This document shows positions 16,478-18,391 of a stretch of 64,000 nt of DNA, piece by piece (positions within the stretch are counted from its first letter, which is position 1; every line of letters starts with the position of its first letter). The notes below the pieces were generated by a model, which searched no databases, was not told where the DNA came from, and worked only from the letters and a program-made list of their open reading frames with translations. The stretch lies in assembly GCF_013122565.1 (NCBI RefSeq), contig NZ_CP053258.1; one strand, 5' to 3'. Source of the DNA: Escherichia coli (GTDB lineage: Bacteria; Pseudomonadota; Gammaproteobacteria; Enterobacterales; Enterobacteriaceae). The position numbers were made by a program, and so were the translations under genes.

Positions 16478-17620
16478 ATGGAATGCGATCTGCTGATGAT
16501 TAAAATTGAAAAAGTAATTAATAAAAATGACCTTAAGGCATTTATCGCTTTTCCGTCATCACTTTATCCCGACGATCCAAACTGGATACCCCCTTTATTC
16601 ATTGAACGCAACGAGCATTTGTCTGCGAAAAATCCGGGGACGGACCATATCATCTGGCAGGCGTGGGTGGCAAAAAAAGCGGGGCAGATAGTTGGGCGTA
16701 TTACCGCGCAAATAGATACCTTGCACCGCGAGCGTTACGGCAAAGATACCGGTCATTTCGGCATGATTGACGCCATTGATGATCCGCAGGTTTTTGCCGC
16801 GTTGTTTGGCGCAGCGGAAGCGTGGTTGAAGTCACAAGGTGCAAGTAAGATCAGCGGTCCTTTCAGCCTGAATATCAATCAGGAAAGCGGATTACTGATT
16901 GAAGGTTTCGATACACCACCCTGTGCGATGATGCCGCACGGTAAACCGTGGTATGCCGCGCATATTGAACAATTGGGTTATCACAAAGGCATTGATTTAC
17001 TGGCGTGGTGGATGCAGCGAACCGATCTCACTTTCTCTCCGGCGCTAAAAAAACTGATGGATCAGGTGCGCAAAAAGGTGACCATTCGCTGCATCAATCG
17101 CCAGCGGTTTGCCGAAGAGATGCAGATCCTGCGTGAGATTTTCAACTCTGGCTGGCAGCACAACTGGGGATTTGTGCCGTTTACCGAACATGAATTCGCG
17201 ACCATGGGCGACCAACTTAAATATCTGGTGCCGGACGATATGATCTACATCGCTGAGATTGATTCTGCACCCTGCGCGTTTATTGTCGGCTTGCCGAACA
17301 TCAACGAGGCGATTGCCGATCTGAACGGATCGCTCTTTCCCTTCGGCTGGGCAAAATTGCTGTGGCGTTTGAAAGTCAGCGGTGTGCGAACTGCGCGAGT
17401 ACCGCTGATGGGCGTGCGCGACGAGTATCAGTTCAGCCGCATCGGCCCGGTAATTGCGCTGTTATTGATTGAAGCCTTACGCGATCCGTTTGCCCGCCGG
17501 AAGATCGATGCGCTGGAGATGTCATGGATCCTCGAAACCAATACAGGCATGAATAACATGCTGGAACGCATTGGGGCGGAGCCGTACAAGCGTTACCGAT
17601 TGTATGAAAAGCAGATTTAA
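16478..17620 (+). CDS. yghO: YghO; putative acyl-CoA N-acyltransferase-fold protein (candidate lipid N-acyltransferase)
   Basis: 380-aa ORF; fold assignment is from memory of family annotation and is not verified here. Confidence 0.65.
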   Translation: MECDLLMIKIEKVINKNDLKAFIAFPSSLYPDDPNWIPPLFIERNEHLSAKNPGTDHIIWQAWVAKKAGQIVGRITAQIDTLHRERYGKDTGHFGMIDAIDDPQVFAALFGAAEAWLKSQGASKISGPFSLNINQESGLLIEGFDTPPCAMMPHGKPWYAAHIEQLGYHKGIDLLAWWMQRTDLTFSPALKKLMDQVRKKVTIRCINRQRFAEEMQILREIFNSGWQHNWGFVPFTEHEFATMGDQLKYLVPDDMIYIAEIDSAPCAFIVGLPNINEAIADLNGSLFPFGWAKLLWRLKVSGVRTARVPLMGVRDEYQFSRIGPVIALLLIEALRDPFARRKIDALEMSWILETNTGMNNMLERIGAEPYKRYRLYEKQI

Positions 17621-17626
17621 TACCAG

Positions 17627-18391
17627 CTAACTCAGGTTCATCTCCAGCGGCACCGCCGAGCGAATCAAATGGTGGCCTTCCAGCTCGATATCGTGGAGAT
17701 TCTTTTTCACGGTCCGCACATGATCGCGTGCTGCGCGCTGGGCGACGTGCGGCAGCCGCTGCAACACCGCGTTGTAGATCCGCGCATGCTGGCGATCGAT
17801 CTGCTTTTTTTGCTGTGGTCGATGGTAGAGATTATTTACGCTGGCAAACACTGAATTAAACATCAGATCGGTCAATGATTGTAGCGTAAACACCAGCACC
17901 TGATTGTGAGAAGCCTGACAAATGGCGAGATGGAAAGCGTGATCCAACTGAGCATGTTCGATCAGCGAAATCTCTTTGTTGTTCTCACTGGCGGCGAGCA
18001 TTTTTTCATAACAGCGGGTTATCACAACAAAATCAGCCTGGGTTCCCAGCGTTGCCGCAAGCCTTGCCGATTCGCCCTCCAGCAATGCGCGAACGTCGAG
18101 CAGATCGTACAGCGTTCGCGGCTGCGTGCTGAACAGATGAATTAGCGGGCTGGTGTCCTGCACCCGATTAAGCCGTGCGACACGAGAATCGCGACCCTGC
18201 GCTGTTTCAATAATCCCGCGCCCGCGCAGCACGGTCAGTCCTTCACGCAGTGCGGAGCGTGAGAAGCCGAGCTTTTCACACAGTCGACGTTCCGAGGGAA
18301 GCGGCTGACCGACCTTCAGTACGCCGTCGATAATTAACCGTTCGATACTCTCTGCAACCACTTCGCAAATAGGGCGACGTTCATCTTTCAT
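17627..18391 (-). CDS. glcC: GntR/FadR-family transcriptional activator of the glycolate operon
   Basis: 254 aa from MKDERRPICEVVAESIERL...; N-terminal winged HTH; divergent from glcD. Confidence 0.9.
   Translation of the reverse strand: MKDERRPICEVVAESIERLIIDGVLKVGQPLPSERRLCEKLGFSRSALREGLTVLRGRGIIETAQGRDSRVARLNRVQDTSPLIHLFSTQPRTLYDLLDVRALLEGESARLAATLGTQADFVVITRCYEKMLAASENNKEISLIEHAQLDHAFHLAICQASHNQVLVFTLQSLTDLMFNSVFASVNNLYHRPQQKKQIDRQHARIYNAVLQRLPHVAQRAARDHVRTVKKNLHDIELEGHHLIRSAVPLEMNLS

Follow-up and report, generated by a model that had tools for sequence, protein, structure and literature searches.

The genes yghO and glcC lie tail to tail in the window, by which we mean the whole 64,000-nucleotide stretch of Escherichia coli DNA that was analysed. 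The features at their junction are the following.

16478..17620, plus strand: yghO coding sequence, an open reading frame of 380 aa, annotated by RefSeq as 'protein YghO' with identical ends.
17618..17620, plus strand: yghO stop codon, TAA (TGA in the second common allele).
17621..17626, no strand: spacer TACCAG, 6 bp from stop to stop, of the same length in K-12 and other strains.
17621..17635: variable junction patch, 15 nt, from the yghO stop to the end of the conserved glcC sequence (...PLEM[N/K]), as delimited by alignments.
17627..17629, minus strand: glcC stop codon, TAG (CTA on the plus strand).
17627..18391, minus strand: glcC coding sequence, 254 aa, a glycolate regulator of the GntR/FCD family, annotated by RefSeq as 'transcriptional regulator GlcC'.

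In the window YghO ends in ...YEKQI and GlcC in ...EMNLS, and the two reading frames do not overlap. The sequence-only reading of this DNA had described convergent stops 6 bp apart and placed them exactly. Identical ends with an identical gap are annotated by RefSeq in NZ_AP042570.1, the closest genome, and in two further strains, and the annotation of K-12 MG1655 (glcC 3128272-3129036, yghO 3129043-3130215) again leaves 6 bp. An annotation artefact was ruled out, as both stops are unambiguous and are the first in frame. The yghO-glcC junction was found in 4544 of 5426 complete E. coli genomes, and the 2.3 kb around it matched 4536 of the 5426 at 97-99% identity.

The identity of the two products was examined by sequence and structure. 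GlcC carries Pfam GntR and FCD domains. YghO had no Pfam match even at E-values up to 10, no NCBIfam match and no meaningful sequence match in the PDB. An AlphaFold model of YghO based on 21 homologues was of moderate quality (pLDDT 62, pTM 0.51); when it was compared with the PDB using Foldseek, all 50 of the 50 matches listed belonged to the GNAT superfamily (best E-value 3e-8, with low TM-scores), the top ones being tandem-GNAT proteins. YghO is predicted on this basis to be a tandem-GNAT-fold protein, for which 'acyltransferase' is a reasonable term at the level of the fold. A screen for lysine acetyltransferases also included YghO among the candidates that it overexpressed. The K-12 label of DNA-binding regulator found no support in either the sequence-family or the structure searches. 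The genomic context of yghO was characterized by a scan of one genome per species, which yielded 44 loci. A divergent gene for a fatty acyl-AMP ligase (FAAL) adjoins yghO in all of the ~40 loci with enough upstream sequence, including those of Pseudomonas, and since this neighbour is conserved, yghO belongs to the lipid locus made up of FAAL, an epimerase/dehydratase, an ACP and serine palmitoyltransferase (spt). Together, this linkage and the GNAT-fold matches of the model make the earlier designation 'lipid-locus acyltransferase' a fair one.

Across the 44 loci, a glcC-like gene follows yghO in Escherichia alone (E. coli, Escherichia sp. E1V33, Escherichia sp. MOD1-EC7003 and E. whittamii). 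More than 35 loci of other genera have yghO with FAAL and no glcC within 3.5 kb. The next ORF in other genera lies 0-1,215 bp downstream of yghO, with a median of ~140 bp, and in a few non-Escherichia loci (e.g. L012, L021, L022 and L045) the yghO stop is closely followed by a strong hairpin with a T-run behind it. The tight yghO-glcC junction is a derived juxtaposition specific to the genus.

The junction itself is polymorphic in E. coli, with these alleles.

Window allele, about 3,000 E. coli genomes: TAA-TACCAG-CTA on the plus strand; GlcC ends in EMNLS and the stop.
Second short allele, 1287 genomes (the 93.6% identity class, one genome of which was sequence-checked): TGA-TGGCAG-TCA on the plus strand; GlcC ends in EMKQG and the stop; carried by phylogroup B2 strains.
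Long allele, 185 E. coli genomes (S1-JOR-02-A and NZ_CP033635.1 among them): a 75-bp spacer; GlcC (256 aa) ends in EMNKVGM and the stop.

Homologous long spacers of 76 and 77 bp are present in Escherichia sp. E1V33 and E. whittamii. After the conserved ...PLEM[N/K], the GlcC tail reads LS, KQG, QN, KVGM, KEGM or K before the stop, depending on the allele, and the glcC stop is no more than the first in-frame stop within whatever sequence follows the conserved end. That there are several alleles with a different GlcC tail in each argues that the junction patch is weakly constrained. Counting both stop codons, 9 junction positions distinguish the two common short alleles, whose flanks are ~99% identical. 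The flank haplotype TACCAG..GTTCAT is shared by the window allele and the E. coli long allele, while GGCAG..CTTCAT is shared by the second short allele and E. whittamii, a pairing that hints at recurrent deletion or recombination. The long form may be the ancestral one, lost by deletion more than once, or it may go back to an old insertion.

The short alleles all retain exactly 15 nt from the yghO stop to the conserved end of glcC, with 6 bp between the stops. This constant length in both short alleles is not predicted by a purely neutral view.

The long spacer belongs to a dispersed family of intergenic, GC-rich imperfect palindromes of ~57-70 bp, which blastn placed at a median of 7 and up to 13 sites per genome (5347 genomes, 82-89% identity). 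Copies at glnH-glnP and argE-ppc align with it. We had considered a unique insertion, as megablast returned a single copy, and rejected this when blastn revealed the dispersed family. Folding of the long spacer gave -31.5 and -22.6 kcal/mol on the two strands, with no U-tract. We presume that the repeat belongs to a 'Box C'-like class; a literature search on that name returned nothing usable. The allelic series with its differing GlcC tails, the long-spacer repeat and the restriction of the adjacency to Escherichia are the new detail of this analysis.

The other observations at this junction, the 6-bp gap in the K-12 annotation and the overlap of the two transcripts (PMC12288877), were already known. 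ExcludonFinder (Sanmartin et al., NAR 2025, PMC12288877) lists glcC-yghO in its Table 1 among 165 convergent overlaps of MG1655, a list that requires the transcripts of a pair, as delimited by RNA-seq, to overlap in at least 50% of 58 MG1655 data sets. Its rule takes coverage above 50% of a gene's mean, which is noisy for weakly expressed genes. The same study found that convergent overlap pairs have short intergenic distances and that 146 of the 165 have predicted terminators within the neighbour's transcription unit (PMC12288877). Earlier, Conway et al. 2014 reported 3' overlap in 276 of 370 (75%) convergent E. coli operons, with a mean of 286 nt (PMC4161252). Capture by p19 was uninformative for convergent pairs, and the 3'-end tables in the supplements of Adams et al. 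2021 have no entry for glcC or yghO, which fits low expression but does not prove that such ends are absent. In K-12 an IS5 element takes the place of the yghO promoter and of the gene's first 40 nt, and the whole lipid locus up to yghQ is gone, so yghO transcription in K-12 differs from that of the intact locus in the window.

Terminators are RNA signals that can sit inside the opposite gene and need not be intergenic, and Rho can also terminate untranslated read-through. We searched for such signals on both strands. A consensus scan found no terminator-like site in 16000-19000, compared with 2.9 in shuffled sequences. No GC-rich hairpin flanked by an A-tract and a T-tract, as expected of a bidirectional intrinsic terminator, lies at or between the stops; folding across them gave weak structure, and the 40-nt windows there were not among the most stable. 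An Rfam search had no match in the junction or in the long-spacer allele. A relaxed scan for a hairpin followed by a T-tract, allowing interrupted stems, gave one weak candidate per strand within 1 kb downstream of each stop, 155-570 nt away from the junction. This is the chance rate, the same scan giving 1.18 candidates per kb per strand across the window. The two candidates are listed below.

17774..17811, plus strand: candidate for yghO read-through; hairpin 17774-17804 and T7 17805-17811, inside the glcC codons for QQKKQI.
17046..17093, minus strand: candidate for glcC read-through; weak hairpin and T7, -8.4 kcal/mol, ~570 nt into yghO.

The first candidate raises the alternative that yghO transcripts end at an intrinsic terminator embedded in glcC, which would give a defined ~190-nt 3' UTR overlapping just the last quarter of glcC. 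Its hairpin of -11 to -12 kcal/mol followed by seven T's is the sole such site in the 1 kb past yghO, it is unchanged in the five E. coli strains compared, and 146 of 165 published convergent excludons have terminators predicted within the neighbour (PMC12288877). However, the hairpin is interrupted by a 3-nt bulge, has an 8-nt loop and does not exceed shuffled sequence in stability (z = -1.33, with 11% of shuffles equally good); the GlcC codons explain the T7, and coding constraint accounts for the invariance, identity being ~98%. The consensus scan missed the site, and one such site was to be expected by chance. Given the background of 1.18 per kb per strand and the z-score, we rejected both relaxed candidates as evidence, and termination at 17774-17811 seems to us unlikely.

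Base composition was examined with Rho in mind, whose terminators call for ~80 nt of untranslated RNA past the stop that is rich in C and poor in G. The antisense RNA beyond the glcC stop (17346..17626, minus strand, ~280 nt) has a C/G ratio of 1.0-1.76 in 80-nt windows, which by composition alone makes Rho loading on glcC read-through RNA plausible. On the plus strand, RNA past the yghO stop has a C/G ratio of ~1.25 for ~100 nt and then below 1. The sequence-only reading had stated that the gap leaves no room for terminators. This holds insofar as none fits in 6 bp, but it does not hold as a statement about termination in general, since terminators may lie inside the opposite gene, as predicted for 146 of the 165 ExcludonFinder overlaps. 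The 6 bp being too small and no terminator being found above chance nearby, read-through of each gene into its neighbour is expected, as had been proposed, and the published overlap in K-12 (PMC12288877) agrees with it.

To place the pair among other convergent genes of E. coli, we surveyed PGAP annotation in seven 50-kb stretches (350 kb) of NZ_AP042570.1, a small sample that contained 35 convergent pairs. Their gaps in bp (negative values denote overlaps) were as follows.

Row 1: 50, 148, 6 (yghO-glcC), 34, 431, 47
Row 2: 52, 199, -4, 47, -4, 172, 53
Row 3: 159, 336, 203, 136
Row 4: 227, 55, -35
Row 5: 38, -7, 66, 58
Row 6: 101, 3, 49, 315, 70, 66
Row 7: -18, 39, 28, 409, 1

A gap of 6 bp or less, or an overlap, was present in 8 of the 35 pairs, or in 7 of 34 (21%) with yghO-glcC left out. 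The close pairs other than yghO-glcC were these.

dkgB-yafC, -4 bp
yafS-rnhA, -4 bp
small ORF-ydeM, -35 bp
arnF-pmrD, -7 bp
dcrB-yhhS, 3 bp
oxyR-sthA, -18 bp
yjaH-zraP, 1 bp

All six named pairs are on the ExcludonFinder list (PMC12288877); the remaining one, in which a small ORF without a name faces ydeM, probably corresponds to yneP-ydeM of that list. The 6-bp gap is commonplace and no more than chance would give, and because the arrangement is common, yghO-glcC is not singled out by its tight gap. It resembles the excludons of ExcludonFinder (PMC12288877) and the pairs of Conway et al. (PMC4161252) in having opposite strands, stops that almost touch, no terminator between them and, by RNA-seq in K-12, transcripts that overlap. 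Nothing sets it apart from the other 164 ExcludonFinder pairs, and its evidence in K-12 comes from a yghO made promoter-less by IS5. It also resembles dnaQ-rnhA and ilvA-ilvY (cited in PMC4161252), oxyR-sthA, dkgB-yafC, yafS-rnhA and arnF-pmrD, tail-to-tail pairs with stops at most 6 bp apart or overlapping, in which any terminator must consequently lie inside the partner gene; unlike the coding sequences of the classic overlapping pairs, which overlap by 4-18 bp, the yghO and glcC frames do not overlap. Convergent genes that have a bidirectional intrinsic terminator between them share the geometry, whereas yghO-glcC has 6 bp and no hairpin flanked by A- and T-tracts.

Adjacent, on opposite strands and tail to tail, yghO and glcC have the geometry of a convergent excludon, and the junction could be a functional one, kept tight so that transcription of each gene represses the other, as polymerases collide and RNase III cleaves the sense-antisense duplex, thereby coupling glycolate regulation to lipid synthesis. 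The listing of the pair as a convergent excludon in K-12 (PMC12288877), the absence of terminators between or near the genes, the higher synteny of excludon pairs as a class than of other neighbours and the retention of 6 bp in two different short alleles are in keeping with this. Several observations weigh against it. First, the adjacency is limited to Escherichia, and in 185 E. coli genomes as well as in two further Escherichia lineages the stops are instead separated by a hairpin spacer of 75-77 bp. Second, such junctions make up ~21% of convergent pairs in our survey. Third, K-12 is without the yghO promoter and the whole lipid locus, a loss for which we know of no glc phenotype. Likewise, to our knowledge there is no functional link between glycolate and the FAAL-epimerase-ACP-spt lipid locus. 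Lastly, the ExcludonFinder study itself calls the significance of leaky overlaps debated (PMC12288877). We regard a functional excludon as quite improbable.

Another possibility is that converging polymerases halt each other near the junction, leaving overlapping, defined 3' ends, a form of bidirectional termination reportedly described by Ju et al. 2019. Collision-driven, Rho-independent termination has been described for hundreds of convergent E. coli pairs without intrinsic terminators, and mutual termination was seen at highly expressed pairs with a hairpin in the overlap (bioRxiv 10.1101/2022.10.23.513370). The mechanism would suit a pair that, like yghO-glcC, has neither spacer nor terminators. 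However, it requires an overlap that can form a hairpin and transcription that starts often on both sides, with trailing polymerases, while at yghO-glcC there is no notable hairpin at the stops, both genes are presumed to be weakly transcribed, and the Adams 2021 data have no called 3' ends at either. We consider it very improbable here.

The explanation that we favour, and hold to be probable, is that two unrelated transcription units simply meet here tail to tail, as is ordinary, and that the junction is not a dedicated regulatory device. The lipid-locus gene yghO would have come to lie beside the glycolate regulator gene glcC in the genus Escherichia alone, and the DNA between the conserved gene ends would be a short patch, polymorphic and free of constraint, that measures 15 nt in most E. 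coli and reaches ~90 nt where a copy of the dispersed palindromic repeat sits. A polymerase leaving either gene would enter the coding region of the other and produce untranslated antisense RNA. Its synthesis would stop at various sites, mostly through the action of Rho on RNA that carries no ribosomes, and the RNA would then be degraded. Since untranslated antisense RNA is a normal substrate of Rho, heterogeneous Rho-dependent 3' ends would be expected. With weak expression presumed for both genes, collisions between polymerases and pairing of sense with antisense RNA are likely to be infrequent, and their effect on GlcC and YghO levels is probably small.

Elongation generally proceeds at ~45 nt/s, and glcC is 765 nt long. 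As a rough estimate from these values, the probability that a polymerase transcribing glcC meets an opposing one would be ~34 s multiplied by the read-through rate, or a few percent if expression is weak, and would become substantial only with yghO firing about once a minute. The sequence-only reading had further suggested that expression of either gene may interfere with the other; such interference is purely hypothetical.

With the gap already annotated, the overlap published and about one-fifth of convergent pairs alike, the pair matters little by itself. It serves as a reminder that the lack of intergenic space does not mean the lack of termination, which can come from terminators in the partner gene or from Rho acting on untranslated read-through. 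The alleles are of modest use: two with 6 bp between the stops and one with a 75-77 bp hairpin repeat, within near-identical flanks, they form a natural test of the repeat as an insulator. REP elements and similar palindromic repeats in 3' UTRs act as partial terminators and mRNA stabilisers, and the presence of REPs between two convergent genes correlates with both being expressed more highly (bioRxiv 10.64898/2026.03.23.713779). The long allele resembles them in placing a GC-rich palindromic repeat between the stops, but its repeat is not a canonical REP and belongs to a minority allele, not that of the window. By analogy, the 6-bp junction might let antisense cross-talk run while the 75-77 bp repeat spacer blocks or dampens it and stabilises both mRNAs, an idea that we regard as a very long shot. 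If it were true, the gain or loss of one small repeat would retune the Spt-dependent lipid locus and the glycolate regulon, two unrelated pathways, with no promoter or protein touched.

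The convergent yghO (+) and glcC (-) genes are separated by only 6 bp between their stop codons in the window, and comparison across genomes showed that this junction exists in more than one form. In each of the two common short alleles, exactly 15 nt lie between the yghO stop and the conserved glcC end. Their flanks are ~99% identical, yet 9 positions differ at window 17618-17635, both stop codons counted. In place of the 6-bp junction, a spacer of 75-77 bp was found in 185 E. coli genomes, in Escherichia sp. E1V33 and in E. whittamii. Examples from other Escherichia, numbered by compared locus, are:

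L003, 1722-1796: long-spacer junction
L006, 4644-4719: long-spacer junction
L008, 4644-4720: long-spacer junction

The long spacer consists of one copy of a GC-rich palindromic repeat that is dispersed in the genome (median 7 copies per genome), with further sites at glnH-glnP and argE-ppc. By flank haplotype, each short allele is paired with a different long allele. This pairing hints at recurrent deletion or recombination.

The start of yghO may also differ from its annotation. Alignments to homologues from other genera begin at residue 5-7 and Met7 is invariant, and translation may in fact begin with the ATG at 16496, downstream of the annotated start at 16478 (window 16478-16498). In K-12 MG1655, the yghO promoter and the first 40 nt of the gene are replaced by IS5 (NC_000913.3 3130146-3131340, or 12147-13341 of the K-12 locus L002; equivalent to window ~16518), the lipid locus is absent as far as yghQ, and YghO is a hybrid fused to IS5. 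The K-12 annotation of YghO as a "putative DNA-binding transcriptional regulator" found no support in any result here.

In the window, the lipid locus includes:

12107-17620: this gene set, spt through yghO
12107-13195 (-): spt
13195-13443: acyl carrier protein (ACP)
13475-14389: NAD-dependent reductase of the epimerase/dehydratase type
14386-16134: FAAL, an acyl-AMP/ACP ligase
16478-17620: yghO, GNAT-fold protein

The bacterial ceramide pathway of Caulobacter uses Spt, the acyltransferase bCerS and the reductase CerR (PMC11087976), and the locus encodes a similar set, with Spt, ACP, the acyl-AMP/ACP ligase, the epimerase/dehydratase-type reductase and YghO. Linkage of yghO to FAAL was observed in >40 loci of Enterobacterales and Pseudomonas.

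The spt ORF of the window encodes 362 aa compared to 390 aa in the closest RefSeq genome (NZ_AP042570.1), with 28 aa missing in frame that correspond to reference residues 37-64, EGRIGNKKVILAGTNNYLGLTFNHDAIA; the Spt enzyme (serine palmitoyltransferase) may be inactive in this strain. spt also forms a second tight convergent pair, with an lptG-like paralogue at ~10993-12072 (+) and a gap of 34 bp. Since this paralogue and two neighbours are annotated as frameshifted or with an internal stop in the closest RefSeq genome, there are hints of decay of the locus in some strains.
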